From assembly GCA_918797485.1 (NCBI GenBank), contig CAKKNE010000002.1:992001-1056000 (forward strand): a DNA stretch of 64,000 nt, read 5' to 3'. The translations under genes and the position numbers were made by a program. The notes under the pieces were generated by a model. The model saw nothing but the letters and a program-made list of their open reading frames with translations, did no database searches and had not been told where the DNA came from. Shown here piece by piece: positions 10,218-62,410 of the stretch. The first letter of the stretch is position 1; each line of letters begins with the position of its first letter. This DNA comes from Pelagomonas calceolata (Eukaryota).

Positions 10218-10241
10218 GCTAGTGTCTTACATTCCGCTAGC
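10218..10241 (+). promoter_or_regulatory. CTAG-N14-CTAG upstream element
   Basis: GCTAGTGTCTTACATTCCGCTAGC between divergent genes. Confidence 0.75.
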
Positions 10242-10474
10242 AGTTCGCGCAGCCAAGGATTTCAACGCTATAAAAAGCACCGCAACCCACGCGCCGTCGC
10301 CAAGTGGTCGTCCTAGCACCTCTTCTCGTCCGTCGCTGGCATATACTCCGAGACGGGGCAAGCGCAGCCGCCGGTCGCACCAAAATCGCCTTGCGAGGCC
10401 ACCGGCTTTCCTAGCCGCATAGCGCCGCCGCCGCGCACTTTCTAGGCGCAAAACGCCGCCGCCGCACCAGAAAA

Positions 10475-12382
10475 ATGGCCTACGACCAGTCCATGTGGAC
10501 GCGTAGGATAAAGTACGGCTGGCTCCTCTGGGCCGCCGCCGGCACGACCTGCACCATGACCGCTTACGGTTTTCAACCGGTCTTCGCGACGGCGTGCGGT
10601 TGCATGTGGACGTTGTTGTGGATCTGCTTCAACCTGTCGACGCGAATGCTCATCTGCAACTTTTTGAATGGGTGCGTCGACGTCTTTTTCAGGCAGGTCG
10701 CCGTCGCCGGCGCCCACAAGCTGAATTTCAGTGACGAGCCGCTATTACTCGCCATAGCGCCCCACGCGAACCAGTTTATTGATCCCATGATCATCCTCAA
10801 GACCTTCGAGCGGCCTGTGGGGTTTCTTTGTGCGGCCAAGTCCATGAGGTATAAACGAGGTCCTAGCGACTTAATCGCGTTCTTCGCGAACGGCATCGAC
10901 AGCGTGCCCGTGGAACGGCCCCAGGACATCGCGACGGTCGGTAAAGGGATCATACGCGAAGTGTCCCGTGCGGACGATAAGGTAGTAGTACATGGGCAAG
11001 ATACTTCTTTCATGCAAGCCTGTAAGAGAGGAGATCAATTCTTAGTGACCAAGGGCCCCTGCAAAGGTGCCGTCGCGAAGATCCTGGAAGTTGTTAGTGA
11101 TTCTTTGGCTGTGGTCGCGGACAATGCATTCGCGGGTTCCGATGCCAATGAGGAATCGACGTACGAAAACGTCTCAGATGCGCCCTTCAAAGTACTGCCC
11201 AAAGTGGACCAGGACGTCGTGTATCAGGCCATCTACTCGCGGTTGGACTCGAATGGCTGTGTCGGCATTTTTCCGGAGGGCGGCAGCCACGATAGGGCTT
11301 CATTATTACCATTGAAGGCGGGCATCGCCGTCATGGCGCTAGGGGCCTGCAAGCAGCACGGCGAGGCCCTACGGAAACGGCTGAGAGTAGTAGCGGTCGG
11401 TTTAAATTACTTCAGCGGCCACCGGTTCCGGTCTCGCGTGTTCGTCGATTATGGAGAGCCCTTCGAAGTCTCGAGGGAGCTCGTCGACCGGTACGCGTCC
11501 GGCGACAAGCGCGGCGCCGGCGACGAACTGATGGCCCAGATTTTAACTGCTGTAAAGGCGGTCACCGTGCAGGCTCCCGACTCAGCAACGGCGGAGACGT
11601 TCTGGATGCTGCGGCGGTTGTATGTTCCCGATGGTAAAAGATTGACGCTCGAGGAGAAGGTCGCTTTGACGAGAGGTTTTGCGGATGCGGTAGAAAAAGA
11701 CAGAAATGATCCAGACGTATCTTCCGTTTTGAAGAAGGTCGAGGCCTACCACGGGCTCCTGAAACACTATTCTTTACATGATAGGCAAGTAGCGAAGGCC
11801 GGGTCTGATGTTTTGGATAGTGTCGACGCGTTAGCTATGTTAGCTTTTCGTATGGGGTTGTTGCTAGTGTACGCGGTGGCTATCTTACCGGGTACTATTT
11901 TGGCTTCACCTTTGCTCGTTATATCAGAGGTCGTATCTAGATATAAGGCAAAAGTAGCTGTGGCCGGATCCCGAGTAAAACTGAAGGGGAGAGATATATT
12001 AGCGACGTGGAAAGTGGTCTGTGGTATGGTACTGATACCAGCCTTACATACCTTTTATACGATATGCGTCTACTACTTGTACTCGTCGAAGGAGGCCGTG
12101 GCCTACTTCTTCTTCATGCCTTTTGTGAGTTATACGTCGATCATAGCTTCCGAAAACGCGTATCAAGTGTTCCGGAGCATCGGGCCGCTCTTCATGCTGC
12201 TGACGAAAAGGCAAACGGGCGTGGAACTCCGGGAGATGCGTCGTATATTAAAGAGGGACGTGCGAGAGCTGGCCCAAAAGCTAGGGTGGGCGGAGATCAT
12301 CAAAAAGGCGGACTCGCACAACGCGGGGCTCGACGAGCTGCGCAGTCCGCTGCACGTGAGCGGGTTCCCGCGGTCGGACTAG
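10475..12382 (+). CDS. Glycerol-3-phosphate O-acyltransferase (fungal SCT1/GPT2-like)
   Basis: PHANQFIDP, GIFPEGGSHDR, GLNYFSGHRFRSR, GRDILATWK; TM helices. Confidence 0.92.
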   Translation: MAYDQSMWTRRIKYGWLLWAAAGTTCTMTAYGFQPVFATACGCMWTLLWICFNLSTRMLICNFLNGCVDVFFRQVAVAGAHKLNFSDEPLLLAIAPHANQFIDPMIILKTFERPVGFLCAAKSMRYKRGPSDLIAFFANGIDSVPVERPQDIATVGKGIIREVSRADDKVVVHGQDTSFMQACKRGDQFLVTKGPCKGAVAKILEVVSDSLAVVADNAFAGSDANEESTYENVSDAPFKVLPKVDQDVVYQAIYSRLDSNGCVGIFPEGGSHDRASLLPLKAGIAVMALGACKQHGEALRKRLRVVAVGLNYFSGHRFRSRVFVDYGEPFEVSRELVDRYASGDKRGAGDELMAQILTAVKAVTVQAPDSATAETFWMLRRLYVPDGKRLTLEEKVALTRGFADAVEKDRNDPDVSSVLKKVEAYHGLLKHYSLHDRQVAKAGSDVLDSVDALAMLAFRMGLLLVYAVAILPGTILASPLLVISEVVSRYKAKVAVAGSRVKLKGRDILATWKVVCGMVLIPALHTFYTICVYYLYSSKEAVAYFFFMPFVSYTSIIASENAYQVFRSIGPLFMLLTKRQTGVELREMRRILKRDVRELAQKLGWAEIIKKADSHNAGLDELRSPLHVSGFPRSD

Positions 12383-12423
12383 GCGTTGAGGGGTAAGTAA
12401 TTCGATGAATATATCTAATTTGC

Positions 12424-12606
12424 TTACGCAGTCCGCGGCGATGGCGTCTCGCGCGCGTGGAGAATTGCTCGAGCCTGGAGCAGTTTGCCCTCAATATTCA
12501 ATGTGAGCGGATGCGCGCCACCGAGCACGCGCTGCGCGATCCGCTCCGCGGCCTCGAGCGTCGTCACGGCCTCGCGGAGATCGTCGAGCGTGGCACCGGG
12601 GTCCTC
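12424..12606 (-). pseudogene. Orphan 3' end of a helical TPR-like gene
   Basis: Own translation: EDPGATLDDLREAVTTLEAAERIAQRVLGGAHPLTLNIEGKLLQARAILHARETPSPRTA*; no in-frame ATG; in-frame TAG about 15 codons upstream. Confidence 0.65.
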
Positions 12607-13317: not shown

Positions 13318-13327
13318 ACTTGATGAA

Positions 13328-16695: not shown

Positions 16696-16719
16696 GCTAG
16701 CGGCCTGTAAGACACTAGC
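16696..16719 (-). promoter_or_regulatory. CTAG-N14-CTAG upstream element (consensus)
   Basis: + strand GCTAGCGGCCTGTAAGACACTAGC upstream of the ABC gene. Confidence 0.8.
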
Positions 16720-18201: not shown

Positions 18202-18224
18202 GCTAGTGTCTTACAGGACGCTAG
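18202..18224 (+). promoter_or_regulatory. CTAG-N14-CTAG upstream element
   Basis: GCTAGTGTCTTACAGGACGCTAG, divergent gap. Confidence 0.8.
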
Positions 18225-18425
18225 ATGCGGCGGGAGGCAGGCGCGACCGCAGGTGGGCCATTGCGGACCTCACGAGACAAGTTGGGTTTGTTTAAGGCTT
18301 CTCGCGGAAGTTTATAACATCCTCCAAAGCGGCCAGCGCTCGCCGGTGCCACACGCCATAACGAGAGCTGCTCTCCTGCAGCCTCGGCCCGCGCGCAGCC
18401 GGACGCAGACTAGAAGCGCGGAGCG

Positions 18426-29921: not shown

Positions 29922-29944
29922 GCTAGTGTCTTACAGGTCGCTAG
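29922..29944 (+). promoter_or_regulatory. CTAG-N14-CTAG upstream element
   Basis: GCTAGTGTCTTACAGGTCGCTAG, divergent gap. Confidence 0.8.
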
Positions 29945-30161
29945 GTGCGGAGATTAGTCGACAAATTGAGCCCAGCGGACGCGGGACGACCGTCCTCTCG
30001 CGCGCCGAAGCTCTCGGTTTAGTATATCCACTGCGGAGCTCGTCAGCAACCAAGCGCGGGCGCCCGGCGGACTCCCCTCAGCACATTCACCACCAGCGGC
30101 TGCAAGGTCGCCGCGCGCGACAGCAAATCCGCGCGCCACAGCGCCGCACCTACGCGCAACC

Positions 30162-32472: not shown

Positions 32473-33001
32473 GATTTTAGCAAGACTCATACGCCGCCTC
32501 TGATGTCCCTGGAGGGTCGCCCTTCTTGGTGGGAAGCCTGCGCGGTGATCTTGTTACGGTGCTAGGACTAGTGGGTGGAGCCCCTGGGGGGGGAGAGAGA
32601 CCGCGTGTCACCGACTCCTCGGCGACGGACGCGGGCCGCGTCGATCATAACACTGGAGCACTTGTCGCCCTTGGGAAGCCCGCGCGGGGCGCCGCGAGGA
32701 AAGCGCCGACTGCTGTGAGCGCTACGGGTCCAAGACCTAGCACCGAGCCCTCCCGCGCCCCCCGGGCACCGCGGGGACCTCTGCGCTTGCCACATCTCGT
32801 GGCTAGTAGGATAATCTCGCGAAGGCTAGAGCGACACAACCGTCGAGCGCTGTCTGCCGGTAGGGCTGTAAAAGGAGGTGAAAAGGCTGCCCATTCATAA
32901 GGAAGAGGCCGGACAGCACCTCCACAGCGCGTCAACAGCCGGCGGGCACCGCAGCGCGCGACGCCGCCGCGGCGGGGCTGCCCTCGCAGCACGCACCAAC
33001 G

Positions 33002-36284: not shown

Positions 36285-36308
36285 GCTAGTGTGTTACATG
36301 CCGCTAGC
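36285..36308 (+). promoter_or_regulatory. CTAG-N14-CTAG upstream element
   Basis: GCTAGTGTGTTACATGCCGCTAGC, divergent gap. Confidence 0.75.
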
Positions 36309-39179: not shown

Positions 39180-39203
39180 GCTAGCGGCCTGTAAGACACT
39201 AGC
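39180..39203 (-). promoter_or_regulatory. CTAG-N14-CTAG upstream element (consensus)
   Basis: + strand GCTAGCGGCCTGTAAGACACTAGC, divergent gap. Confidence 0.8.
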
Positions 39204-42075: not shown

Positions 42076-42097
42076 GCTAGCGGTGTAAGACACTAGC
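42076..42097 (-). promoter_or_regulatory. Upstream element with 2-nt deletion
   Basis: + strand GCTAGCGGTGTAAGACACTAGC, divergent gap. Confidence 0.75.
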
Positions 42098-44840: not shown

Positions 44841-44860
44841 TCTTTTTGTTACAATATATC

Positions 44861-45868: not shown

Positions 45869-45979
45869 CGCACTCCGCGTTAGCTCTCACTGCAGCGACA
45901 CCGCGCGCCGCGAAACCTTTGCTCAAAAGGCACCGCTACGCCCTCAAAACGCGACTGCACCTGCTTTGGAGAGGGATTT

Positions 45980-46002
45980 CTAGTGTGTTACAGGCCGCTA
46001 GC
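45980..46002 (+). promoter_or_regulatory. CTAG-N14-CTAG upstream element
   Basis: CTAGTGTGTTACAGGCCGCTAGC, divergent gap. Confidence 0.8.
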
Positions 46003-46053
46003 TCACGCCGCAGTCGAAAACAGTGTTAAGTACGTTGCATTGGCGCCGCAGCA

Positions 46054-46917
46054 ATGCTCCTCAAGCGCCTCTGGCCAGGCATGATGGCCGCGGCACCGCT
46101 ACAGCCGCTCACTCACACCACCTCGCTCTGCATCGTGCCACCCGACGACTCACCGGAGTGGCGCGCTGTGCAAGCGACGCGTCTCGAGATGCGCGACGCC
46201 GGCATTTATCGCTGGCCGCCGCACTGCAACCTGATCTATCCATTTGCGGCGAAACCGCGGCTGGCTGCTCGTGACGTGCGCCGCGCGTGTGCTGCGATAG
46301 AGCCGTTCCGCCTGCGGCTGACGGCTTACGGCACCTTCGGCGGCGCGAAACGCGGCGTACTATGGCTGCGGCCCGACGTCGTCGGCGGCGACACCGATGC
46401 GCTCGCCACGCTGCAGTCTACGTTGTGTGAAACTTTGGGCTACGAGACGCCGGCGGCGCGGAAGCGGTCGCTGCCGTTCGTGCCACACTTTACCTTGGCG
46501 CACTTTGACTCGCTCGCCGCCGCAGCGGCCGCGGGCGACGCGCTGACGTTTGAGCCCGTGGAGTTCGACGTCGATGCGGTGCACCTGCTGGAGCGAGAAG
46601 GGCACCAGGGCCAGTTCGAGATCGTGGAAAAGGTGCCCCTGGGCCGCGCGCCGCTCTGGCGCCTGCGGCGACTCTTCCGACGAAAGCGACGGTTCGTAGG
46701 CATGCCAACCGAGGCGCCCGATTGGGTGGCCGACGCGATGGCCGAGCGAAGCAGCAGGCGGTTCCGCGGCCGCGGGAAGCGTCGGCGCAAGCGGCGGTCG
46801 GCCGCCGAACGCGCGGCGATCAATGCGCGGACGCCCGAGGACATTGCTGCGATTCGGGCCGAGCGCGCGGCGAAGAAGAAGAGGGCGTCCGAGACTGAGT
46901 CCTCATCCGATGTGTGA
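46054..46917 (+). CDS. 2H phosphoesterase (2'-5' RNA ligase/LENG9-like)
   Basis: RWPPHCNLIYPF and FVPHFTLAH. Confidence 0.8.
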   Translation: MLLKRLWPGMMAAAPLQPLTHTTSLCIVPPDDSPEWRAVQATRLEMRDAGIYRWPPHCNLIYPFAAKPRLAARDVRRACAAIEPFRLRLTAYGTFGGAKRGVLWLRPDVVGGDTDALATLQSTLCETLGYETPAARKRSLPFVPHFTLAHFDSLAAAAAAGDALTFEPVEFDVDAVHLLEREGHQGQFEIVEKVPLGRAPLWRLRRLFRRKRRFVGMPTEAPDWVADAMAERSSRRFRGRGKRRRKRRSAAERAAINARTPEDIAAIRAERAAKKKRASETESSSDV

Positions 46918-47329
46918 TATAACTGTCTATTGTTGTGGAATCCCGTAGTAAGCCAGGGTCCCGCCCTGTGATGTGGGTGCAAGGCGCGGAGTCTCTGCGT
47001 TGCCTCAGGTCGCGGTCGCCGACGGTAGACTCCGAACGCGACGACGCGCCGAAGGCGTAGGCGAACTGTCCCGAGAGGCGGAAACGGCTGCGAAGAGACG
47101 CCCTGGACTGAATTTGCGCGGGTTGAACCGAGTGCAAAAAACCCGTGACTTTCTGCCCGTGCTCGGATTTGCGGGACGCGCAACGCGGGGCTGAGCAAGT
47201 TCGTGCCCGGCGGGTGAGCCTCAACGTCTTATTTCAGTGCCCGGCGGCTGCGCGTGCAAAAATCCCGGCCCCTGGACGGCTGCTAGCCGACAAAATAAGC
47301 AAATACCCAGGGGGCAGAATTGCTGCAAA

Positions 47330-49012
47330 ATGACCGCTCTCCGCGCCCTCCTCGTCGCCGCGACCACCGCCGCCCTGCGCGTGCCGACGCGCCGCGAGCT
47401 CCTCGTGGGCGGCACGACCTCGATAGCGGCGCCGGCCTTCGCCGACCCGCACGAGTTCGCGCCGTCCGTCGTCGAGGAGGAGTTCTCCACGGGCAAGACC
47501 GGTCTGTTGCTGCTCCCACCGGTAGCGCCCCTGCGCAACTCGTACACCTGGGTTAGAGCCGCCGAGGACGAGGCCGAGGCGGCAGGAATTCTGGCCACTA
47601 ATCCCGCCTTCAAGATGGCCGTGTCCAACTCACTCACTGAACGAGGCCTCAAGCAGGCGTCGGACGCCGCGAAGAAGCTCAAGGACTTGGGGATGGCCAA
47701 CCCGCGCATCTGGTACTGCACCGGGAGGTCTTCCACACAAACAGCCGATATTTTGTGCGACGAGCTAGGAATACCGCATGATAGAATGATGCCCGAGTAC
47801 GTCATGTTGGATGCGAGGGGCTTCGGCGCGCACGAAGGCATCAAGCTGAAAGAACTGGAGAAGCTCCACGCGCAGTACGACGCTAAAAGTAGGTACCTCA
47901 AGCCCGTCGAGGGCGAGGACGGCAGCTACGCCGAGTCCGTCGAGGACGCCTACGCGCGGATCCGGTCCGTGCTCTCGAACTGCGAAACCAGTAGATGCGG
48001 CGAGGAGATCGTCATCGTGGCTCCCGGCGCGGACCTGCTCTCCATCGCGTCGGCGATGTTGAGGGGAGACGACTTGCGGACGCATTTCAAAAACAAACCG
48101 CCGCCCGGCGCCGTCGTCCACTTCGGGGACATGGCCGCGACGGCGAAGCCCTGGACCCCGTCGAAGAGCAACGACCCGGGACCGGCCTGGGCGGCCGCCG
48201 AGCGGGACCGCCTCACGCGCGCGCACGACGACCGCGCGCTCGTCGCGCGCGCGCAAGCTCGAGGCCACCAGGACGTCGACCGTTTAGTGGATGCGCACCA
48301 GGACCACACGATACGAACGGCGCGCCTCGACGCGCAGGCCGCCGCGCGCCAAGCGACGGCGGACTCGCAAAACGAAAAGAACGCCGCGACGAAGGCCGCG
48401 GCCGAAGCGCGCAAGGAGCAGGCCCGCGCGCGGCGCGCGGCGCGCGTCGCGGCCGACCGCGAGCGGATCCTGTCGGCGCCCCAGAAGGCGGCGTCGGAGG
48501 TCTACAGAAAGCCAGAGGTTTCTCAGAAGCCAAAGCCCGCGGCCGCGCCGGCGGCGCCGAAGCCTCTGCGCCAGGCGCTCGCGACGCCGGCTCCCGCCGA
48601 GTCGCTCGAGCTGCTGCCCGAGGACGGCCTCCTCGCGGCGATCCCGCTGGCGCTCGCCATGGCCGCCGTCGGCGGGTCCTCGCTCGACTCGAAGGAGCAA
48701 GCGAAGGCGTCCTACGCCGCCAAGCCCCAGGCCAAGGAGGCGTGGCTCAAGTACAAGGTCTCCGCGCGGAAGCGCCGCGAGGCCGAGGCCGCCCAACTGA
48801 AAGCTGAGGAAGAGGCGGCCCAAAAAGCGGCGGCGGACGAGGCCGCGCTCGCGGCGCAGCGCGAGGTCCTCATCCACGCGAAGATGCCCGAGCTCGAGGA
48901 GCCGTGCGACCCGCTCGACGAGCTGTGCAAGGCGAACTACGAGAACGAGTCCGACGACGCGTGGCTGGCGCAGATCTCGGGGATCATTGCCGATTCGTCT
49001 TCGGAGGAGTAA
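47330..49012 (+). CDS. Phosphoglycerate-mutase-like protein, predicted plastid/thylakoid targeted
   Basis: Signal peptide then TRRELL; LRNSYTWVRA, LTERGLKQA, LDARGFG, ESVED...R. Confidence 0.7.
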   Translation: MTALRALLVAATTAALRVPTRRELLVGGTTSIAAPAFADPHEFAPSVVEEEFSTGKTGLLLLPPVAPLRNSYTWVRAAEDEAEAAGILATNPAFKMAVSNSLTERGLKQASDAAKKLKDLGMANPRIWYCTGRSSTQTADILCDELGIPHDRMMPEYVMLDARGFGAHEGIKLKELEKLHAQYDAKSRYLKPVEGEDGSYAESVEDAYARIRSVLSNCETSRCGEEIVIVAPGADLLSIASAMLRGDDLRTHFKNKPPPGAVVHFGDMAATAKPWTPSKSNDPGPAWAAAERDRLTRAHDDRALVARAQARGHQDVDRLVDAHQDHTIRTARLDAQAAARQATADSQNEKNAATKAAAEARKEQARARRAARVAADRERILSAPQKAASEVYRKPEVSQKPKPAAAPAAPKPLRQALATPAPAESLELLPEDGLLAAIPLALAMAAVGGSSLDSKEQAKASYAAKPQAKEAWLKYKVSARKRREAEAAQLKAEEEAAQKAAADEAALAAQREVLIHAKMPELEEPCDPLDELCKANYENESDDAWLAQISGIIADSSSEE

Positions 49013-49066
49013 GCTTACTTAGGGATACTAACCCGTCGATTTCAGGGCTCGCGTTTAGGAAATCGC

Positions 49067-49089
49067 GCTAGCGGCCTGTAAGACACTAG
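49067..49089 (-). promoter_or_regulatory. CTAG-N14-CTAG upstream element (consensus core)
   Basis: + strand GCTAGCGGCCTGTAAGACACTAG, 88 nt before ATG 49177. Confidence 0.8.
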
Positions 49090-49176
49090 GGATGCCAAGC
49101 AGATTTCAGAAGCTTAAGATCGCTGGGCTCGAGCCCGCGACCGCGAAGCAAGCGATCTAGTAGTGGAGCATCGATA

Positions 49177-50388
49177 ATGGCTGCCCCTCCCGGCACTATG
49201 ATGATCACCGTTCCGGCAAATATGCCGCCCGGTGGAACGCTGCAGGTCACAGCTCCAAATGGGCAGCCATTGATGGTGCAGGTCCCGCCCGGCCATGGCC
49301 CTGGCTCGACCTTCGCGGTCCGCGTGCCCGGCCCGCCCGCGCCGCCGGCGCAACCAGTGCTTGTCCAACCCCCGCCGCAACCGACCCCGGCACAAAACTA
49401 CGCAGCGCTCGCCGCGGCGAACGCGCCGCCGACGCAGACGGCGCCGCTGCCCACGCCCAAAGGTCCGTGCCTGCTCGTGGATCACATCGACGTCCCGGGC
49501 GACGGGTCTAGCGTGTTGAATCCCATGTCGCTGGGTGTGGATAGGGGCGGCCAGGCCTTCGCGGGCTACGTCGCGGACGACCTCGACGGCGCCGGCGCAA
49601 AGCCCGCCTACGCGGCAGTTATCTCGACGCGGGACTGGCAGAAGCACTGCCCGGCGGGACAAGACGTGCCGCAGGGCCTCGTGGTTCCCATATACCCATC
49701 GGCCGTCGATCAAAAGGGTCAGATCGAATGGACGGGCGCCGCCGTGGCAGAGCTCCACCTGGACAACTTGGTGACTCCCTGTTGCAAATGCAACGATCCT
49801 CTGTCGGCGAAGGTGACCAAGGACGGCCAGACCTACGAGATCGTGTCCGAAAGTGGAAGATGCATGAGATTGTGCGCTTGCATCCCGTGCCAGCCGTGCG
49901 TCTCCGACTCGGACATGACCCTTGGCGAAGGTGCGGCCCAGGTAAGGCTCAAGGGCGCGAAGACCAAGCCGTGCTGCGATTGTAACCGCAAGGACACGAC
50001 CGTCTTCCGACGTGTCGAGGGAGAGACCAAGGCGGGCATGCACCGGGCCGTCCTCAACACGGAGGCGGCGCTGGGCTCGTGCTTGGGCTCGAAGGGCACC
50101 CGCGAGCTCGTGCGGCACAAGCGCCACTCGGGAGAGTGGTTGCGCGGGCCACTCGGTGGCTACTACTCGGAAGAAAGCAAAAACGGCACGCCGACCGGGA
50201 GCCAGGCGTACAGCATCAGGCTCCCCGCCAAGAACGCGCTGCCACCCGAGGTGTGGTTCGCCGCGACGGTGTTCGAGGGGATCGCGTACCCCTACCACAA
50301 GATGCGCGTGCAAGGAGGAGATTGTAGACCTTCATTTGAACCGGATTATAGTGCCGGCGCGCCGTGCGGGATGGAGATGAACCGTTAG
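49177..50388 (+). CDS. Hypothetical protein, Pro-rich N-terminus and Cys-rich (scramblase-like?) domain
   Basis: 403 aa ORF; ITVP...PG....V repeats; CC clusters. Confidence 0.6.
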   Translation: MAAPPGTMMITVPANMPPGGTLQVTAPNGQPLMVQVPPGHGPGSTFAVRVPGPPAPPAQPVLVQPPPQPTPAQNYAALAAANAPPTQTAPLPTPKGPCLLVDHIDVPGDGSSVLNPMSLGVDRGGQAFAGYVADDLDGAGAKPAYAAVISTRDWQKHCPAGQDVPQGLVVPIYPSAVDQKGQIEWTGAAVAELHLDNLVTPCCKCNDPLSAKVTKDGQTYEIVSESGRCMRLCACIPCQPCVSDSDMTLGEGAAQVRLKGAKTKPCCDCNRKDTTVFRRVEGETKAGMHRAVLNTEAALGSCLGSKGTRELVRHKRHSGEWLRGPLGGYYSEESKNGTPTGSQAYSIRLPAKNALPPEVWFAATVFEGIAYPYHKMRVQGGDCRPSFEPDYSAGAPCGMEMNR

Positions 50389-50535
50389 CGTCCACGGTCC
50401 GTCGCGGCGCACTTTCCCCGCCTCAAATTTTACCCCATCCCTACCCCTGGGCCTTCTTTCCCGTTTCGCGCGCAGCATACACAACCCGCTCGTCGCGGCT
50501 CGACGACTGACTTAATCCTTCTTAACAACTAGCTA

Positions 50536-51792
50536 CTAGGCGTCAGGCGCGCTCTCGATGAACCCCGGCTCGCCCTCCTGGATGGGCCGCGTCTTGATGA
50601 AATTGTCCAGGTTGCAGACGTACTTGGGTTCCTTCGTCGCCATCGCTCCCGTCGCCGGGTGGCGCGCGACGCGATACATGTCGACGTATCGATGGTTCCG
50701 AAGGATCCGCGAGAACGGTCGCGCTCTTCTTTCAATCGCGCTGGACAGCAGCGTCGGGTCGTAGTAGACCGCCGACAGCATCACCTGGTTCCCATCAATA
50801 TCTAACGCGGCGAGAGTGACAAACACGGTCTCGACCTTTTGCGCTCCGCCCGGATAGCCCGCGTTGAACGGCGAGGCCGCGTCCTTCACGCTGTGCCGTA
50901 GCGTGATGATATTGCATTGGTTCCGCCACGTCGCATAGCGGGACCGCACAAGAGGCAGATCTACGGTCTGCCCGCTCGACGTCATGCCTTGCATCGTGAA
51001 CTCCATGTTGTAGAGGAAGCCCATGCTCGACTGGTTCGAGTTGCGCAGCACCATGAAGCGCACTTGCAGGCTGTCGTCGTTGACCACGCTGTCCGGACTG
51101 AAGATGCCCGAGCGCGCCGGCCGGAGCGCGCGCGCGACGATCAGCGCCGAGGCGACACTCAAAAGTAGCCAGTGAATCCAGCCGTAGATCGCCAGCACGG
51201 TGATCTCGAGCGGCGTTGAAGCTTTCGTCGGCTGCCAGCCAAAAATCTTATCCGTGCTCAGCCGGACCGTCGTCAGCGCGAGGATGACGTTGTCCCGGAA
51301 GCGGACGTTTTGCTCTTCGATGACCTGCGCCAGCGTGAGCAGCGACCCGCAGAGTAAGATCACGAGCATTTCCGACAGGAGCTCGCCCACGATTAATTTT
51401 GACCAACTCAACTCGTGGACGAGACGAAACCATACGTCTTCTAGCGTCCCGAAGGAGAACACCGAAGCTTCGCCCTCTATGGCCACCGTGTACGGCGCCA
51501 GGATGTCCGCGTTGTGAAAAACGCTCGCGTCGAGCGTCTCGCGGCTCCGCAGGTCCGGCCCGTCCGCGCCGCCGGGAGCCGCCACCTTTGGAGCAGTCTC
51601 CTCGGTGGCGGGCGCGGGCGACACGCGCTGCTTGGCGGCATCACGGTCCGCTTTCGCGAACGCCGCGGCGAAATCGGGATGGCGGAACTCGCCGGGCGGC
51701 ACCGGCAGGCGGAGAGCACTTCGCACCGCATGCCTGCGGTTCCACGCGCCGTAGCCATTGAATCCCCAGGGAGCCTTGTGTTTTTTCGGCAT
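50536..51792 (-). CDS. Inward-rectifier potassium channel-like protein with non-canonical pore
   Basis: DVWFRLV..SW slide helix, two TMs, ARALRP...IFS...VV...LQVRF cytoplasmic domain; ATG at 51792. Confidence 0.65.
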   Translation of the reverse strand: MPKKHKAPWGFNGYGAWNRRHAVRSALRLPVPPGEFRHPDFAAAFAKADRDAAKQRVSPAPATEETAPKVAAPGGADGPDLRSRETLDASVFHNADILAPYTVAIEGEASVFSFGTLEDVWFRLVHELSWSKLIVGELLSEMLVILLCGSLLTLAQVIEEQNVRFRDNVILALTTVRLSTDKIFGWQPTKASTPLEITVLAIYGWIHWLLLSVASALIVARALRPARSGIFSPDSVVNDDSLQVRFMVLRNSNQSSMGFLYNMEFTMQGMTSSGQTVDLPLVRSRYATWRNQCNIITLRHSVKDAASPFNAGYPGGAQKVETVFVTLAALDIDGNQVMLSAVYYDPTLLSSAIERRARPFSRILRNHRYVDMYRVARHPATGAMATKEPKYVCNLDNFIKTRPIQEGEPGFIESAPDA

Positions 51793-51912
51793 TTTTGTCC
51801 AACAACCGCTAGCCAGCTGCCCGCACAGCTCAATTTGGTAGCTGAGAGACGTCCAATGGCGGGCACTTGACCAATGCGGGCAGCCCGGGCAGCCACAGCG
51901 CCTGGATTTTTT

Positions 51913-51935
51913 GCTAGTATGTGTGGACACGCTAG
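51913..51935 (+). promoter_or_regulatory. Variant upstream element
   Basis: GCTAGTATGTGTGGACACGCTAG, same 14-nt spacing, divergent gap. Confidence 0.55.
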
Positions 51936-52110
51936 TTCCCGGGATTAGGCCGATCGAGAGACCGGTCGCGCTGCTCACGCGCGAGCTTGAGGCGGCAGTT
52001 GAAGGTCGCGAGTGCAGCGCCCACAGCCCAGGAGACAGCACGCGCTGTCGCTAGCCGAGCGAGCACCAATCAAGAGAGCTTAGGTCAAAAAGCTTCTCCC
52101 ACCGGCTGCG

Positions 52111-54633
52111 ATGCCGCCCAAAAAGAAGAGCAAAACGAGCACGCCGGCGACGCTCCCCTGCTTCGCCACCGCACGCTTGACGATCATCGGCGCGAACCCC
52201 GTCCAGCGCAAGATCTGGGCGAAATGCGGCGGCCCGACGTTTTTGAAGCCGAGCCAAGTAAACCAGCTCACGAATGACCGCGACTACGTCGTCGTCGCGG
52301 CGGCCGTCGACGCCTCAATCATCCAAACAAAAAAGGGCGCCGCGCTCGTCGTCACGGACCGCTGGCTCACGGCGTCGATCGAGCGCAACGCGCTGCAGGA
52401 CGCGGCCGCGCACGCGTGGCCCCCTCCACAAGAATCGACGGAGGTTACACTGATGCCGCCGCCGGGCTTTGAAAGGCCCGTGCGCTGCGTTGCGTACGAC
52501 TGCGACGCTGAGTGGGTCGCGGCCGTCCGCGGTTTAGTCAGGGACCACCGGCCCCACGTCGTGTTACTACGTGGCGCGTCGGGCGCCGACGCGTTGGGCG
52601 ACGGCTGGCGCGTCGCGGCCTCCTCCACATCAACTGCGATCCTCGCGCGGTGCGAGGGAACGAGTCTGGACGCGCCTGAGCATGCTTGCGCGTGGCGGTC
52701 GAGAGCGGGCGACGTCTTCGCCGTCGGCGACGATTTACGGAATTGGGCTTCTGATCGGCCCCGCGACGATATTTTGACGGTGTTCACCTCTCAAAACCTC
52801 GAGGCCGCGGGTTTGAGAGATGCCTACGCCTTATTAAGGCCGGGCCGGGCCGTGCCAGCAACGGCACCCACTGAAGCGTCCTGCGACTCGCTGCGCTACG
52901 GCGACGCCTTCGCTCAAAAATACGGCGACTCGAATCCACTAAGGAGGCCCGCTCCCCAAGAAACGATCCCGGGCCGCGCCGAGCTCTGGACGTCGTTTTA
53001 CGGCGGCGGCGTCCACCGGTTGTTGGACTGCTGCGCCGCGTCGCCCGACAATTGCCAGAGGTGGGGCCGCGTTCTAGCATTAGACGCGAAAAGGCGGACG
53101 GCCCTCCGCCCGGGACCCGCTGAAGATGACGTACCACGCGCCTCATCTGTTATTGTGTTTGAGGGCGACCATGACAATGAAGCGAAGAAGGAGGCCGGTA
53201 GAAGGACGTCCGCGCGGCGAGGCTGCATCCAGGCCTTTCCCAGCGAAGCCCTCAAGGAGCGCTCGCCTTTGCCCGTCACGAGACGGGTTTGTGCTGCTCT
53301 GTCCAAGGTCTTTAAGTTGGAGGCGGCGCGCTTAGGTGGTGATCGGAAGACGCGCAGGCCGGGCGAAGCCCACGGCACCTGCAACACGCAAGTATTGATG
53401 TTCGAGCGGGCCCACGCCATGGTGTTGAGCTGGCCGTATCAACTGCGGACGGACGAGGACGTCTACGAGAAACTAGTGGGAGAGCGGCCCTACATGTCTG
53501 TGGATGGGAGACCGGCGCGCACCGTCGCGCGAGCCCTTAATGGAGAGCTCGACACCTGGGAGGCCTGCGCCGAGTCGTTGCGAGAATCATCGTTAAATGA
53601 CCCCTTCGAGACTGATGCATTGATCGCTTCCGCAAAGATGGCCAAGGTGTTTGGCATTTCCGTGGGAGACGGTGTGGTTGATGCTGAGGAGAAGGAGGGT
53701 AAACTCCGAGGAGCGTACGAGGTCGTGCAATACCTGAGAAAGGCGGGATATGGACAAAGACCGTCGGTGGATGACGCCGTGGATGCCATGAGAGGGGATG
53801 AGAAATTCCGCGCGAAGCTCACGCAGTTCGCGAAGCACGGTCTAGATCGGCACGCCGAGTTCTTCGACGCGCCGTTGTCGGAAGCTGAGGTCTTGGAAGG
53901 TCACTCGCTCATCATGCGGGGGCTGCGGGGCGCGGATTCTCTCTGGAGGCGCTGCGTTCCCGATTATGATCACACGCAGTGGGTTGTGGTCCGGGTCGGT
54001 GGCGCTCGTCGAAGACTAGCGGGTGACTGCGGCCACGACATGGACTTTTTGGTCACGCACCCGCAGATTTGTTCGTACGCTCGGTTGAAGCCGGTGCTCG
54101 ATGCCATCTTGGTGGGACTGAACGCGGAGCGTTCTTCGGTAGATTACGGCAGCGGCCAGCAGGACCTCCCCATCACGAATTACGGCGAGCACGTCGGGTC
54201 TGTCTTAGCGCAAAACACTCCTGAAGAGTTATACAACGTGCCGGTGATCCAACAAATTCGACGGGAGATCACGGGCACGGGAAGCGGTTGGCAGCACTGG
54301 GACCACCTCGCTCGCCATTTTGGGGTATTTCATACGAAGGCCGGCAAAAGAAGGAGGCGCATCGACATCGTCGTGTCGTCGCACCTCGAGTGGCCGTTCG
54401 CTCTTCTGTCCTGGACGGGGGGCAAGGTCTACAATCGTCTGTTGAGAGACTACGCGAACAAGATCGGCTGCTCGCTCTCGGCGCACTGCCTCATGACCGT
54501 GCCCGCCGACGCGTCGTCTCCCCGATTGGTCCCTCAGGAGACGCACCCCGGGACGCCCGTGCCGCGGACCGAGGAGGACGTGCTGCGGCTGCTCGGCGTG
54601 CCGTGGCTGCCGCCTCATTTACGGGACGTGTGA
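52111..54633 (+). CDS. Family X DNA polymerase (Pol mu/TdT-like) with N-terminal BRCT
   Basis: VVTDRWLTASI; VGGARR...GHDMDFLVTHP; RRIDIV...PFALLSWTG...NR.LR.YA; TEEDV...LG..W.PP..RD. Confidence 0.88.
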   Translation: MPPKKKSKTSTPATLPCFATARLTIIGANPVQRKIWAKCGGPTFLKPSQVNQLTNDRDYVVVAAAVDASIIQTKKGAALVVTDRWLTASIERNALQDAAAHAWPPPQESTEVTLMPPPGFERPVRCVAYDCDAEWVAAVRGLVRDHRPHVVLLRGASGADALGDGWRVAASSTSTAILARCEGTSLDAPEHACAWRSRAGDVFAVGDDLRNWASDRPRDDILTVFTSQNLEAAGLRDAYALLRPGRAVPATAPTEASCDSLRYGDAFAQKYGDSNPLRRPAPQETIPGRAELWTSFYGGGVHRLLDCCAASPDNCQRWGRVLALDAKRRTALRPGPAEDDVPRASSVIVFEGDHDNEAKKEAGRRTSARRGCIQAFPSEALKERSPLPVTRRVCAALSKVFKLEAARLGGDRKTRRPGEAHGTCNTQVLMFERAHAMVLSWPYQLRTDEDVYEKLVGERPYMSVDGRPARTVARALNGELDTWEACAESLRESSLNDPFETDALIASAKMAKVFGISVGDGVVDAEEKEGKLRGAYEVVQYLRKAGYGQRPSVDDAVDAMRGDEKFRAKLTQFAKHGLDRHAEFFDAPLSEAEVLEGHSLIMRGLRGADSLWRRCVPDYDHTQWVVVRVGGARRRLAGDCGHDMDFLVTHPQICSYARLKPVLDAILVGLNAERSSVDYGSGQQDLPITNYGEHVGSVLAQNTPEELYNVPVIQQIRREITGTGSGWQHWDHLARHFGVFHTKAGKRRRRIDIVVSSHLEWPFALLSWTGGKVYNRLLRDYANKIGCSLSAHCLMTVPADASSPRLVPQETHPGTPVPRTEEDVLRLLGVPWLPPHLRDV

Positions 54634-57772: not shown

Positions 57773-58234
57773 CCTGTCTTGATGCCGGGTTCGGGCTGCC
57801 GCGTGGCGGCGCCGGGGGCAGCCCTTCGCGCTGGTTGGGGCGTGCGGCGGGCGCGGGGCGATGCGCGGCCACGTACGGCGGAGCGGCGGCGCGGCTGGGA
57901 GGCGGCGTGTAACGGCGCGGCGCGGCGGGGCGCTTGCTCGGGAGCTGCGAGAAACGGAGCCACCTTCACCATGGCCCCGCACGACATCTGATGTTGAAGA
58001 CGACAAAATGGCCTCCTTTCGATTCATAAGATGTCTCCTAGACGCCTGGCATACTGCCTCCGAGCGATGAAATCGACTTCCCGACATCCGCGGTTGCCCG
58101 AGGGCGTCTAGGCTGTGGGCTAGCTTCACGGCCAGATAGAGCAGAATAATTGGGTCTCCAAATTCACAATTCATCATAGTCGTCCACTGAGACCATTTCT
58201 TTACGAATAGCGGCCCGGAAGAGCCAAACTCGGA

Positions 58235-58257
58235 GCTAGCGTAATCGACATACTAGC
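58235..58257 (-). promoter_or_regulatory. Variant upstream element
   Basis: - strand GCTAGTATGTCGATTACGCTAGC (13-nt spacer). Confidence 0.45.
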
Positions 58258-58430
58258 AAATTTAAAGATACGCTTCGATAGCGTCAAAAGAATGACCCAA
58301 ATTCAGAATACATCCTAGTCGTTCGCCGAGACCAAAGATTTCAGCGTAGCGGCCCGGCAACATACCCTCGCGCCTCCCGCGAAGCACCGCCCGCGACATT
58401 CGCGGATGCGTCTTACGGCTCGCCAAAGTA

Positions 58431-59090
58431 CACCAGCGATTGACGCCGCCATCTACCGTCCAGATAGTACATTATATCAACTCCAGCCGAGTTTTCATAC
58501 ACACTCGACGGAACCGGAGCCGACGGCCCGCGCCCGGAGGGCGGGAAAAGAATTCTACTAGACAACTCCCGAGTTTATGTTCGTTTCCTTCCGTTTGTTA
58601 GTGGTAGAGTCCATCCAACCCGCATCAGCGCGCACTGAGCTATTTTAGATATTCCGTTAGGGCCGCGCGATTCGTCGACTTCGGTCCCACGTGTTTGTAC
58701 AAATAAAGCCACATAACCTGCACCCGCGAGTATCAGCGACGCCACTATCCAGATGGACCATAACGCCGTTGTTCTATTCACAATCGACCGACTTGCCCGT
58801 TCTCCGCGGACGACGGTGCGTACGCGGGGCACTGGAAAGGCCCCAGACCGGTGGTTTATATAATAAATTTGCGTTTCAGGCGCTTCGGTCCCGGGAAGGG
58901 CCAGCTAACCGGCTTGATTGTATACTACATTGCTCTGAGACCCAAAGATGCTCGGCGCGGGTCGTCGGGCTCGCGACCCCACGATCGATCGTAAATGGGC
59001 GAATTGCTTGAACCTGCGACCGTCAGCCCGTCTATCATCACCATGGACCATGACGCGATCGTTTGTTCCATGATCGACCGACTTGCGCGG
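58431..59090. repeat. Degenerate ~290-bp-period direct repeat
   Basis: 58753-58796 vs 59043-59086 match 34/44 ungapped by manual count; weaker copy at 58431-58472. Confidence 0.55.
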
Positions 59091-59659
59091 GGTCCAGATC
59101 AAGATGTTCACATCCCGAGCGTGGGCAGCCCAAAGTACCCTTCTCGCGGTGTGGATGTCATATACTTGTAATTGACTATCGGTGGGGTAGTATGGGGTCC
59201 GACGAGACCGCTATTACGATTCCTGGGGGGCCTCGGGTTATTGACGTTTTTGACGGGAACGGGGCGCGATCGGGCCCAAATTATTTACTTTTTTCGGATC
59301 CAGATCGGCCCGTGGAGGTCTCTCGGGGTAGGTCTGGTAGTGGGTAAGCGCCTGCACCGCATACGCCGCCGATGCGGCAGCCTAGGGCTCCCCGAGAGCC
59401 CTGGAACCCATTGCCAGGCTATTCAAGGTAGTTTGCCGCAGTGGTGAGAGAATTGGTCGATTATGCCCCGAGCCCGGGCGCATGCGGCGTAGGCGCTTGC
59501 CCGCGACTAGTGCCGACCCCGAGCACCCCCCGGGAGCCCTCGGGACCGCGAACCGACAGGCTTCCGCCGGCGCAGCCCATGCCCGCGGCGCCCGTCGACG
59601 ACCAAAATTTTTCTAGAGCCGCGCCCCGGCGCCGTCAAAACAGACTACACACGACCAAC

Positions 59660-60340
59660 TTAGGGCGAGCAGCACTTCGCCCCGACGAGGGACAGGTCGG
59701 GCCCACCTTTGGAATCCGCGGCCCACCCGAAAAATTCAGCGTCCTCGTCGAACCTGTGTGGAAATCAAAATTTTACGGCGCGTTCGTGCTGAACCATCGC
59801 GTCGTCCTCCACGCCATCGACGCGACGCCTGTTCGGTGCACCCGACACACTGGTTGATTTCCACACAGCCGACGACGTGCCCGGCGCGTCGGCCGCAATG
59901 TCTCCAAACGCAGTGCCGTCGCTCGCGAAGGTCTCCTCGACGTCTGCCCTGGGTTTGGCTGCGCGCTTCCGTCTAGCTGGTGACGTCTTCCTGGAAGCGC
60001 CCACGACCAGGCCCCCCGTGCCGTCCGCGAAGACCATCGCCGGCAAATCATCATCATCATCACTACGGTCCGAGAAGGCCCCCGGGCAACTATCAGACAC
60101 CGCGCAGCCGTCGACCGCCAACAGCTCTTCCCCGTGTTCTTCGGCCATCCTTACTCGCAGGTTCAACTGATCCAATAACCCAATGATGTCGACCTTGTCC
60201 GCCGTGCCATCAGATTGCTCGATCTCGGCCCAGATGTGGTCGTCCCAATGGAGGCCGGGCGTTGCCGCGGCCAGCGCTTGCGCTTGTTTTTTCGGGACCT
60301 GGTCGGGGAGGCTTTGCAAGGCCGAGGCGCCGGCGCCCAT
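59660..60340 (-). CDS. Hypothetical N-myristoylation-motif protein; predicted exons 60340-59877 and 59753-59660
   Basis: MGAGAS start; splicing out the introner gives ...APGTFDEDAEFFGWAADSKGGPDLSLVGAKCCSP*. Confidence 0.6.
59754..59876 (-). mobile_element. Introner-like element with perfect 15-nt TIRs (59754-59868) plus 8-nt flank carrying the GT donor
   Basis: CTGTGTGGAAATCAA...TTGATTTCCACACAG; body similar to the 61833 and 40592 elements. Confidence 0.85.
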
Positions 60341-60552: not shown

Positions 60553-60590
60553 TGTCGAATGGCCTAAAATGCGGCGGCCGCAAACTGCTG

Positions 60591-60614
60591 GCTAGTGTCT
60601 TATTGGACGCTAAG
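60591..60614 (+). promoter_or_regulatory. Upstream element, degenerate right half
   Basis: GCTAGTGTCTTATTGGACGCTAAG, divergent gap. Confidence 0.65.
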
Positions 60615-60806: not shown

Positions 60807-61430
60807 ATGTCATCTCAGCAGCCACGCATCCCCAAGAAGCAGCGTGCTGCCGCGCCGCGGATGCCGGAGCAGCGGCCCGCATCGCGCGAGCGGATGCCGG
60901 ACCACGTGCCTGTGCCGCCGGCACCCCCTGATTTGATCTACAGCCGCCGGCGCGGCGGCCGCGCGCATCAACAACAACAACAAACTCCAGGCGACGCAAA
61001 GCGGAAGCGCAACGCGCGCAAGCGCCTGCCGCGGACGCACCGCACGCTCGCCGTGCTCCTCCAGGCCGTGCGCGACGAGCAGTTGACTTTTGAGATGAAG
61101 GACGGGACTTCAGTAGCGGGCGCTTTATATGAAGTTGATGCGAACCTGAACGCGACGCTGCGGGGCGCGACGCAGACGCTGCGGAACGGCACGCAGCGGC
61201 GGTACGAATCAGCTTACGTGAACGGGTCCGGCGTGCTGTACGTGCTCTTCCCGGCGCGCTGCGATCCCGTGCGGTCTTTAGACAGGTACCTCGACGCGCA
61301 GGAGCGCGTCGCGCGGACGCAGACGCGCTCGAAGCGAGCGGCGCCGGCCGCGCGCGCGCCGACGCCGGAAGCGATATCGATAGAGGCGCCGGCCCGCCAG
61401 CGCGACCTGGCCGACGGGCCGCGAATCTAA
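60807..61430 (+). CDS. LSm10-like Sm-fold protein
   Basis: TLAVLLQAV...LTFEMKDGTSVAG.L.EVDANLNATL; AYVNGSGVLYVLFP; ATG at 60807. Confidence 0.65.
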   Translation: MSSQQPRIPKKQRAAAPRMPEQRPASRERMPDHVPVPPAPPDLIYSRRRGGRAHQQQQQTPGDAKRKRNARKRLPRTHRTLAVLLQAVRDEQLTFEMKDGTSVAGALYEVDANLNATLRGATQTLRNGTQRRYESAYVNGSGVLYVLFPARCDPVRSLDRYLDAQERVARTQTRSKRAAPAARAPTPEAISIEAPARQRDLADGPRI

Positions 61431-61457
61431 TGTTGTTCGTAAGATTACATGTTGTTA

Positions 61458-62195
61458 TTACAGCTCCATCTTCGCGAGGATCTTCTTGCGCTTGTTGACC
61501 CAGGCCGCGAGCTCGGGCCTCGTGCCGCCCGTCTTCATGTTCTGGAGCCGCTTGAGCTCCTTGGCGCGGTCGGCCTTGGACTTGGACGCCTGCTTGTCGA
61601 CGTAGGAAACTTCGCGCTCGGAGCAGCCTTTCTTCGTAGCGGGGTCGCACTTATCGGCCGGGACCGTCGGGCCGTTAATATTCAAAATCTCCATCTGGAA
61701 GACGAGCGGCGCGCCGCCGGGGATCTTGGGCGGGCTCCCGCTGTCGCCATATCCTAATTCAGACGGAATGTACATCTCCCACTTGTCGCCCTCGACCATG
61801 AGTTGCATAGCTTCCGTCCAGCCTTTGATGACCTGTGTGGAAATCAACCAGTGTGCACGCCGTCGAGCAGGCGTCGCGTCGAGAGATTCGCCGCGACATT
61901 TGATTTCCACGCAGTTAATAACCTGGTTTGGCGCAAACGACGTCGGCGAGCCGCGCTCATAGGAGCTGTCAAAGACCGTGCCGTCGATGAGCTTGCCCTC
62001 GTAGTGGCACTCGCACGACGTCGACGCCTTCGGGTGTGCCTCGCCGTCGCCGTCGCGCAGCACCTTATACATGAGACCGCTCTCGAGCGTGACGACGCCA
62101 TCTTCTTTAGCTTTCGCCTCGAGCCAGGTCTTGCCTTCCGGGCTCGTGCCCGCGTGCGCAGCGGCTAGTAGCAGGCATGCGATTGCCGAACGCAT
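61458..62195 (-). CDS. Secreted FKBP-type peptidyl-prolyl isomerase; in-frame intron 61922-61833
   Basis: SGLMYKVL, HYEGKLIDGTVFDSSY, PNQ|VIKGWTEAMQLM, ELGYG; C-terminal MEL resembles an ER-retention signal. Confidence 0.95.
   Translation of the reverse strand: MRSAIACLLLAAAHAGTSPEGKTWLEAKAKEDGVVTLESGLMYKVLRDGDGEAHPKASTSCECHYEGKLIDGTVFDSSYERGSPTSFAPNQVINCVEIKCRGESLDATPARRRAHWLISTQVIKGWTEAMQLMVEGDKWEMYIPSELGYGDSGSPPKIPGGAPLVFQMEILNINGPTVPADKCDPATKKGCSEREVSYVDKQASKSKADRAKELKRLQNMKTGGTRPELAAWVNKRKKILAKMEL
61833..61922 (-). mobile_element. Introner-like intron (90 nt, in frame) with TIR and 8-nt TSD
   Basis: GTTATTAA-CTGCGTGGAAATCAA...TTGATTTCCACACAG|GTCATCAA. Confidence 0.9.
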
Positions 62196-62387
62196 TGTGG
62201 TAATGGATCAGTCTATATTTTTTAATGGATGCCGAAAGTGGGGACTTGCTGCTGTCACGCGCGAAGTTGCAAACTGATGGTTGCACACGTCTAACGAGGT
62301 AGTGAGAGCAGCGATGTGAACCGCAAACGTGTAACTGGGCAGTGTGTGCAGTAATAACTCCAAAAAAGTCCAGCTGGAACTTAATAC

Positions 62388-62410
62388 CTAGCGGCCTGTA
62401 AGACACTAGC
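62388..62410 (-). promoter_or_regulatory. CTAG-N14-CTAG upstream element (consensus core)
   Basis: + strand CTAGCGGCCTGTAAGACACTAGC, divergent gap. Confidence 0.8.

Follow-up and report, generated by a model that had tools for sequence, protein, structure and literature searches.

The 64-kb window analysed here, the whole 64,000-nt stretch of Pelagomonas calceolata DNA, contains repeated copies of an element of about 25 bp. An earlier note had placed copies at eleven sites, and all eleven were recovered, nine of them by matching a 22-mer and the other two being those at 60591 and 42076. On the plus strand the element lies at 16696..16719 and 39180..39203 (both consensus), 42076..42097 (with a 3-nt spacer), 49067..49090 and 62387..62410, and on the minus strand at 10218..10241, 18202..18225, 29922..29945, 36285..36308, 45979..46002 and 60591..60614. 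The 22-mer is exact at 16697, 39181, 49068 and 62388, as had been claimed; the copy at 60591 is diverged (5 mismatches over 24 nt, 26.6 bits), and the copy at 42076 has a 2-nt deletion in the spacer. With up to 3 mismatches allowed, the 22-mer matched 9 sites in the window versus 0 in 100 shuffles. The distribution of mismatches in the window scan is bimodal, with 10 sites at 5 or fewer and none at 6-7, and shuffled sequence gave a mean of 0.02 sites at 5 or fewer. Pairs of CTAG are found 11 times at 18-nt spacing, compared with 0-5 times at each of the other distances up to 60. The copies amount to approximately one per 5.8 kb. Three weaker copies (14-18 bits) are also present: a minus-strand copy in a divergent gap at 51913..51936 (17.9 bits), a plus-strand copy in a tandem gap at 58235..58257 (18.2 bits), which has the same right end, ACATACTAGC, as the 51913 copy, and a very weak plus-strand copy at 8571..8592 (13.9 bits). 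No tandem arrays involving the element and no tRNA genes were found in the window, and repeats of the introner/MITE type bounded by terminal inverted repeats (TIRs) do occur there. The DNA read runs that were compared are near-identical to the window.

Against a curated list of 39 genes, all eleven strong copies are intergenic: nine lie in divergent gaps (of 13 in the list), two in tandem gaps (of 12) and none in the 13 convergent ones (Fisher p=2e-4), which upholds the placement originally proposed. The two tandem-gap copies are those at 16696, upstream of a minus-strand ATG 218 nt away, and at 49067; the remaining nine lie in divergent gaps, as at 10218, where the two ATGs are 160 and 233 nt distant. 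The distance to an ATG, given previously as about 50-260 nt, is 51-250 nt on the curated list. About three in ten of the genes in the window have the element between them or just upstream. Strong copies are absent from 4 of the 13 divergent gaps and from most tandem promoters, and therefore the element is not required for transcription; a gene in the top-expression bin (44151) also lacks a strong copy.

Pelagomonas is an abundant ocean genus, and a metagenome scan yielded 125 further distinct copies after three matches with a Caulobacteraceae flank (L027, L069 and L107) had been removed before counting. The flanking proteins of these copies, where named, are those of Pelagomonas calceolata; a homologue search for one of the loci gave no hit with a name. 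None of the 80 metagenome copies with long flanks lies in a predicted CDS, and of 37 copies flanked by a gene on either side, 14 lie in divergent, 21 in tandem and 2 in convergent gaps; this gene context comes from our own Markov gene model, in which introns are not handled and 143 of 270 sides stay unclassified. Among classified sides, a gene start lies to the left of the copy in 47 cases and to the right in 44, in keeping with the proposed indifference to orientation, with median ATG distances of 203 and 150 nt, respectively; upstream stop codons lie at a median of 112 nt. Single occupancy of a gap is not a strict rule, for one metagenome locus has two copies 82 nt apart. The expectation of thousands of copies genome-wide holds as an extrapolation, which gives approximately 5,000. 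In prokaryote genomes 69 stretches matched, 31 of which are one conserved Caulobacteraceae-type region, and five matching marine MAG contigs (L127, L133, L147, L152 and L181) look like eukaryote contamination; the one genome tested had a single match. Viral contigs contained no exact element match, their 4 degenerate matches, in contexts of 44-48% GC, were taken as chance, and a blastn search against phages returned only noise at E=3.

The element is bipartite, consisting of (A)GCTAGCG, a variable spacer of mostly 3-5 nt (3-6 overall) and TAA[G/C]ACACTAG, with soft extensions, AG to the left and CAAGC to the right, and it carries approximately 32 bits of information. The 14 nt between the two CTAGs had been described as a conserved spacer; conserved blocks are indeed present, but conservation is not uniform, as the variable spacer lies inside. 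Mismatches in ten window copies number 4 of 180 positions in the blocks versus 7 of 40 in the spacer (p=8e-4), and 59 distinct spacers occur among 135 copies. The metagenome copies were picked by a pattern that fixes 17 bases and to which empty orthologous sites are invisible, so that block conservation among them, and the presence of the element at two orthologous loci, are partly built in. At both of these loci, which come from diverged relatives, the element is retained and nearby DNA has changed, and the comparison, ascertained by the motif, is unbiased at spacer and edge positions only. The site orthologous to the 29922 copy, beside the NDUFB7 gene, differs in 2 spacer bases only (L117). 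At the site orthologous to the 45979 copy (L108), 30 nt are identical, the 10-nt stretches that border them agree at 2 positions on one side and 1 on the other, and the neighbouring gene block is inverted, with the breakpoint within about 25 nt of the copy. A further pair, L059 and L106, was dropped from the orthology evidence because its members have only a 160-nt leader in common, before different ORFs. Literature searches did not find the element as a described motif.

Evidence from RNA places transcript ends close to the element. A pile-up of RNA 5' ends in raw reads lies at 36360, 52 nt from the 36285 copy, and contigs from a putative RNA run have ends lying 11 and 24 nt outside a copy; such contig ends include those at 39156, by the 39180 copy, and at 51880, by the weak 51913 copy. 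As judged from this pile-up and three contig ends, transcript ends seem to fall mostly 10-50 nt outside the element. None of the 8 listed RNA contigs spans a copy, and one starts inside a copy, at 36298. Some transcripts do include a copy, as seen in 79 and 47 reads from other loci.

The flanks of the element are AT-rich and show composition features at set distances. At 5-35 nt, tracts of A4 or T4 occur in 103 of 262 sides, compared with 25 of 253 at 95-125 nt; a strand polarity of poly(A) and poly(T) suggested at first was rejected (58 T versus 48 A). AT dinucleotides show a step 82 nt out (t=4.9) that exceeds all 100 jittered controls; among copies whose ATG is distant, the step lacks significance (p=0.85). 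On 91 start-facing sides, CG is 0.075 at 130-160 nt versus 0.121 at 100-130 nt; this drop persists where the ATG is at least 190 nt away (n=39, p=2e-4), and none is seen on 36 end-facing sides (p=0.75). The sequence gives no sign of long-range nucleosome phasing. The CG feature of the first cycle is significant; CG showed no periodicity across the window and none at distances from the element greater than 250 nt (p=0.57), and long-range CG phasing was rejected on these grounds.

The flanks had also been described as unrelated. This is mostly the case, flanks being unique in 87% of copies, but 17 of 135 copies share a neighbouring module of 30-160 nt. Two such modules are seen in the window beside the element: non-coding module A (8603..8720, plus strand) directly follows the very weak copy at 8571 and, in each of the 5 places where it was found, lies 0-11 nt to the element's right, and non-coding module D (49036..49066, plus strand) precedes the 49067 copy and, in all 6 of its HMM hits, lies 1-51 nt to the element's left. 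Module A has no match in viral contigs. Modules B and C occur together at 32546..32670 on the minus strand without a recognisable adjoining element; in 3 metagenome loci module B is found 57-82 nt to the right of one. Module C, with its hairpin and CTAG-T, was considered as a Helitron end and rejected because homology continues for 16 nt past the CTAG in both copies. The motif itself does not have a Helitron terminus (3' hairpin, CTRR, insertion before T), since C follows its CTAG in 77% of copies and T in 2%. These shared modules hint that copies may have been spread by duplicated or mobile cassettes.

We consider it probable, on positional grounds, that the element is a promoter site of the general-regulatory-factor type, that is, a putative landing site for a dedicated factor that would open chromatin and set transcription starts on both sides. 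The promoter-organising function suggested earlier thus gains indirect support from the element's confinement to gaps with a gene start, its equal use either way round, its persistence at orthologous loci and the fixed distances of the composition features; the long-range phasing part of the suggestion does not. The predicted general promoter factor would bind the element through two contact modules, flexibly joined because the spacer varies from 3 to 6 nt. Together with the flanking A/T tracts, the factor could exclude nucleosomes over approximately 80 nt on each side, leaving a short nucleosome-poor region that would stay open and place starts on both sides, so that Pol II may start within about 10-80 nt of the element. 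The CG trough at 130-160 nt could mark the first nucleosome or a start-site-linked feature, and some copies may have been multiplied by duplication along with adjacent DNA.

A close likeness is to the yeast Reb1, Abf1 and Rap1 sites, which, according to PMC3875857, are promoter-wide, independent of gene function and orientation, and flanked by A/T tracts, and which with poly(dA:dT) act bidirectionally through nucleosome depletion. Unlike these sites, the Pelagomonas element is longer, with about 32 bits and an elastic spacer, and both its factor and its nucleosome depletion are putative. The yeast Abf1 site is itself bipartite, and to our knowledge the element has no recognised sequence similarity to the Reb1, Abf1 or Rap1 motifs. 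It also differs from the human bidirectional motifs (ZNF143, NRF1, NFY, ETS, SP and CREB) in being a single dominant motif of other sequence. Like the Drosophila BEAF-32, DREF and M1BP sites, for which PMC12549938 describes dual insulator and promoter roles at housekeeping promoters, it is located near starts and often between divergent genes, whereas the Drosophila motifs are clustered and measure 5-8 bp and the present element, of about 25 bp, usually occurs singly. Eukaryotic factor sites had been said to be usually much shorter; the length is unusual, but it is not by itself unique because there are long precedents, such as the 21-bp MSL recognition element (MRE). According to PMC4384637, this recognition element was spread over a chromosome of Drosophila miranda by the ISX Helitron and domesticated. 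ISX offers a possible parallel to the shared modules beside the element, with the difference that its 77 copies still lie inside recognisable elements, and here approximately 5,000 copies are estimated and no element class was identified.

A different account would see in the motif what survives of a small mobile or duplicating element: a core without function for the host, inserted where promoter DNA is open. The modules are what speak for it: 13 of 135 copies carry them on a fixed side and in fixed orientation (6 right, 7 left), 8 of 8 classifiable module-bearing sides face a gene end (p=2e-5), two more pairs of copies share leaders of 160 and 72 nt before different ORFs, weak copies exist, and the inversion breakpoint at L108 adjoins a copy. 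Yet 56 boundary tests detected no target-site duplication (2 nominal positives, with 5 of 132 cases each), and beyond the CTAG core there is no terminal complementarity above shuffles from pairs -1/+1 to -6/+6. The miniature element with CTAG target duplication envisaged in the earlier note is therefore unsupported, and the shared modules lend weight to a looser mobile origin. Pelagophyte introners and MITEs are high-copy short repeats of the same genome (PMC9481584), but introners have TIRs, are 80-210 nt long and lie within genes, whereas the element has neither TIRs nor target-site duplications and avoids genes. Scores are bimodal rather than a continuum of decay, changes gather in the spacer, at orthologous loci the motif has outlived the DNA beside it, and composition features extend at set distances out to 160 nt, all of which make a purely mobile core unlikely. 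A mixed history deserves somewhat more credence, if only tentatively: a mobile cassette could have seeded a long binding site genome-wide, which the host took over as chief organiser of the promoters of about one third of its genes, with remnants purged where they face genes and surviving where they face gene ends, and with cassettes still being duplicated or swapped between unrelated genes.

Were the element mainly an insulator or roadblock, its bound factor would part packed transcription units and halt read-through, and proximity to starts would be secondary. The tandem share of two-sided metagenome gaps (21 of 37), the nearby upstream stop codons, the transcripts that run into a copy, and BEAF, which PMC12549938 describes as an insulator protein that also serves divergent genes as a promoter factor, are consistent with this; but convergent gaps, where collisions are expected, are nearly empty (0 of 13 in the window, 2 of 37 in the metagenome) and divergent gaps are the richest, and we regard a primarily insulating role as quite improbable. 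Replication origins or recombination sites located by chance in promoter gaps, the former also raised at the outset, would account for the intergenic position, the AT-rich flanks, and the one inversion breakpoint and shuffled cassettes that adjoin copies. They predict neither the gene-start bias nor the start-side-specific CG trough, and eukaryotic origins are spaced far more widely than one per 5.8 kb, which makes this reading very improbable. Least credible, to the point of being nearly dismissible, is a role in RNA or single-stranded DNA, as a hairpin, a small RNA or a relic of a trans-spliced leader. A stem of 7 bp forms in the minus strand when it is folded (-9.2 kcal/mol as RNA) and some transcripts contain the element, but no compensatory pairing is seen at six flanking pairs (-1/+1: 82 of 132 observed versus 83.0 shuffled), Rfam gave no match, whether in the window at the gathering threshold or, with E up to 1, in 8 loci, and the element is mostly outside the listed transcript contigs. 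The spliced-leader relic and the hairpin were rejected on this lack of covariation and on the two-way orientation to genes.

As a promoter-factor site, the element would represent one high-information site at thousands of promoters, making promoter definition in a compact eukaryotic genome directly testable. A 25-bp probe could be used to fish for the factor, transcription starts could become predictable, and the element may provide a minimal bidirectional promoter for genetic tools. If the mobile-origin reading is true, Pelagomonas would possess a transposon-wired promoter network far beyond the 77-copy case of ISX.

The element put forward by the earlier note is real; it proves to be bipartite, in that (A)GCTAGCG and TAA(G/C)ACACTAG enclose a short variable spacer and are followed by a soft CAAGC tail. 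Its 22-mer was matched with at most three mismatches at nine window sites against none in 100 shuffles, and a 24-nt scan and a PWM added the copies at 60591 and 42076 (the latter shorter by 2 nt), giving 11 with those at 10218, 16696, 18202, 29922, 36285, 39180, 45979, 49067 and 62387. Match scores in the window are bimodal: with a spacer-flexible PWM the 11 copies reach 27–42 bits and three weak sites, at 8571, 51913 and 58235, 14–18 bits. Because 282 kb of shuffles gave about one site at at least 14 bits and 0.2 at at least 17 bits, the two stronger weak sites, 51913 and 58235, are probably real copies; the case for 8571 rests on the adjoining module A, a shared non-coding stretch found once in the window (8603–8720), 11 nt after the site. 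Further CTAG pairs lie upstream of genes at 2398–2418 and 32805–32831, both with the right end CCTACTAGC, and two weak copies have the right end ACATACTAGC; these are possibly variant subclasses of the element.

On a list of 39 window genes curated from ORFs, Pfam and a Markov model, copies occupy 9 of 13 divergent gaps, 2 of 12 tandem gaps and none of 13 convergent gaps (p=2e-4), lie 51–250 nt from an ATG and adjoin genes of unrelated function, so that the gap placement, the distance of about 50–260 nt and the lack of a shared function claimed earlier all held. One window gene, at 8810–10057 (-), joins a 2H phosphoesterase (CPDase) domain to a P-loop kinase-like N-terminus, a combination resembling bacterial phosphonate-operon proteins. 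Outside the window, none of 80 copies with long flanks falls within a predicted CDS. Under a gene model that ignores introns and misses short genes, the 37 copies there that have a predicted gene on either side comprise 14 divergent, 21 tandem and 2 convergent cases. Of 270 copy sides, 91 look toward a gene start, 47 of them on the left and 44 on the right; a gene end is faced by 36, and 143 are unclassified. The median distance to the ATG is 203 nt on the left of the element and 150 nt on the right (p=0.002).

For 35000–52600 the RNA and DNA comparison drew on a raw poly(A) run, 6% of which was read, on a set of putative RNA contigs and on two sets of DNA contigs. Near the 36285 copy, at a distance of 52 nt, reads pile up on the 5' side (10 molecules, depth 31). 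Ends of putative RNA contigs fall outside three copies: at 39156 and 46013, 24 and 11 nt from strong copies, and 33 nt from the weak copy at 51913. One contig starts within a copy, at 36298, and none of the longest eight pieces listed crosses one. At other loci, 79 and 47 reads, in both orientations, contain a copy, with variants that occur in DNA too. A few transcripts, then, do include the element, whose possible presence in mRNA had been raised earlier. No indels were seen over copies in the DNA runs, which are near-identical to the window.

A degenerate pattern recovered 126 stretches from 1/64 of the metagenome collection, or an estimated 10,000 or so in the whole. With three bacterial look-alikes removed there were 125 distinct metagenome instances, and 10 pattern-fitting window copies brought the set to 135. 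The spacer measures 5, 4 and 3 nt in 84, 34 and 7 of the 125, and 6-nt spacers occur among copies not selected by the pattern. Free positions prefer G (79%) and A (52%) on the left and C, A, A, G and C (77, 68, 65, 47 and 59%) on the right; from these counts and preferences the element is asymmetric and about 25–27 nt long, with a left block, an elastic spacer, a right block and a soft tail. The asymmetric middle described earlier thus stands, but not its uniform conservation over 14 nt, since window copies not selected by the pattern have mismatches at 7 of 40 spacer positions against 4 of 180 in the blocks. Thousands of copies genome-wide, as had been predicted, agree with two extrapolations: 4,700–5,500 from density (32 Mb, 16,667 genes) and about 4,500 (interval 1,200–37,000) from two window sites re-hit in 9,000 pair comparisons. 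Prokaryote and viral collections held only chance matches or likely contamination. A conserved non-coding stretch of Caulobacteraceae genomes (L129 and some 30 other loci) gives a single match to the degenerate pattern in each record listed; it is probably a conserved promoter with no relation to the element. Among the homologues of window proteins are pelagophyte ones, and clusters named Pelagomonas calceolata take in 3 of 10 proteins encoded at metagenome loci that bear the motif. The GC content of the window, about 63%, agrees with the 63.6% reported for the species (PMC9481584), and the source is taken to be P. calceolata or an alga closely related to it.

At L108, a related locus with CDS about 95% identical to the window, 30 nt at the element are unchanged, including a rarer C variant, and the adjoining 10 nt match at only 2 and 1 positions per side; at L117 (CDS 87%) the element differs at two spacer bases and the flanks are indel-rich. 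Both loci were found through the motif itself, and empty sites are therefore invisible to this comparison. To the right of the element, L108 carries a homologue of window 43858–44042 turned the other way round, pointing to an inversion with a breakpoint at most about 25 nt from the element; a three-gene block, 43858–45976, is seemingly inverted in this relative.

A structured RNA is argued against by the lack of compensatory complementarity between the element's flanking pairs and of any Rfam match, and a classic transposon by the lack of prominent target duplication in 56 tests. A looser mobile origin than the miniature-element footprint of the earlier note gains some support from neighbouring DNA. 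All-against-all comparison of flanks gave two module families, with A/B right of the element in six copies and D left in seven, always in constant orientation. Module D occurs once in the window (49036–49066), directly against the 49067 copy, and modules B/C once (32546–32670), without a recognisable copy. Two more pairs of copies have common leaders of 160 nt (L059/L106) and 72 nt (L101/L111) before different ORFs; these ORFs are unrelated, and the leaders stand at equal distance from the element. The L059/L106 leader also has 16 nt in common with module A, in the direction leading away from the element. Given these modules and leaders, 17 of the 135 copies come with adjoining DNA that they share with others, and the statement that flanks are unrelated is true of most copies but not of these. 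Module-bearing sides are end-facing in all eight classifiable cases (p=2e-5). Module ends vary and the hairpin-CTAG of module C is not a terminus, so the modules fit no assignable transposon class; they could be what is left of a mobile cassette that was removed from the sides facing genes, or promoter and terminator DNA duplicated locally. The 21-bp MRE borne by ISX (outlined in PMC4384637) is a precedent for a mobile origin of the element.

Other repeats were noted in the window. Introner-like insertions bounded by TIRs lie at 59755–59867 (113 nt) and 61834–61913 (80 nt), each within the reading frame of a gene, in one case that of an FKBP, and their internal repeat recurs at 14914, 19502, 19606, 40623, 43628 and 63763; introners are already known from P. 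calceolata (PMC9481584). The region 39806–41898 (-) encodes a TauD-family dioxygenase and, after it, an Ldh_2 domain whose frame changes at an introner-like insert, an arrangement that suggests a TauD-Ldh_2 fusion gene. The 1.7 kb or so at 58030–59760 has no predicted gene, a lowered GC (0.54 at 58001–59000), a weak element copy and short repeats resembling module C, and is possibly a decayed mobile element.

The zone around the element is AT-enriched and CG-poor (GC about 0.56 vs 0.63), with A4/T4 tracts, of no strand polarity, on 103 of 262 sides at 5–35 nt vs 25 of 253 at 95–125 nt. The frequency of AT dinucleotides steps down some 82 nt from the element (t=4.9, exceeding 100 jittered controls), a drop not significant in genes with the ATG at least 190 nt away. 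A sharp CG trough with a gain of CA at 130–160 nt is limited to start-facing sides and remains where the ATG is distant. These intervals were picked after inspection of the profile; the p values from jitter tests over periods were <0.005 and 0.023. The CG phasing envisaged earlier did not appear in composition: no periodicity showed up more than 250 nt from the element (p=0.57) or in the CG autocorrelation of the window, and Dnmt5-type linker phasing, as described in Aureococcus (PMC9998398), is therefore not visible here.

A literature search over openly searchable full texts, and so without subscription papers or bioRxiv supplements, in which a description could lie, listed no account of the element; the earlier note had likewise not recognised it as a described motif. 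The words "motif" and "promoter" do not occur in the main texts of PMC9481584, PMC13284251 and bioRxiv 2024.10.30.620910, nor does "CTAG" in five supplementary files of PMC9481584. The working proposed below resembles that outlined for yeast GRF sites (PMC3875857), human bidirectional motifs (bioRxiv 2023.06.27.546584) and BEAF/DREF sites (PMC12549938), with no membership implied; from all of these the Pelagomonas element differs in its length, its information content (32 bits) and its elastic spacer. The element is real, apparently undescribed and probably functional as a promoter element. Of the readings offered earlier we adopt, as the likely one, a general promoter element read by a dedicated factor: a general promoter factor would bind it, keep a short region open, presumably by nucleosome depletion, and set the start positions of transcription in both directions.
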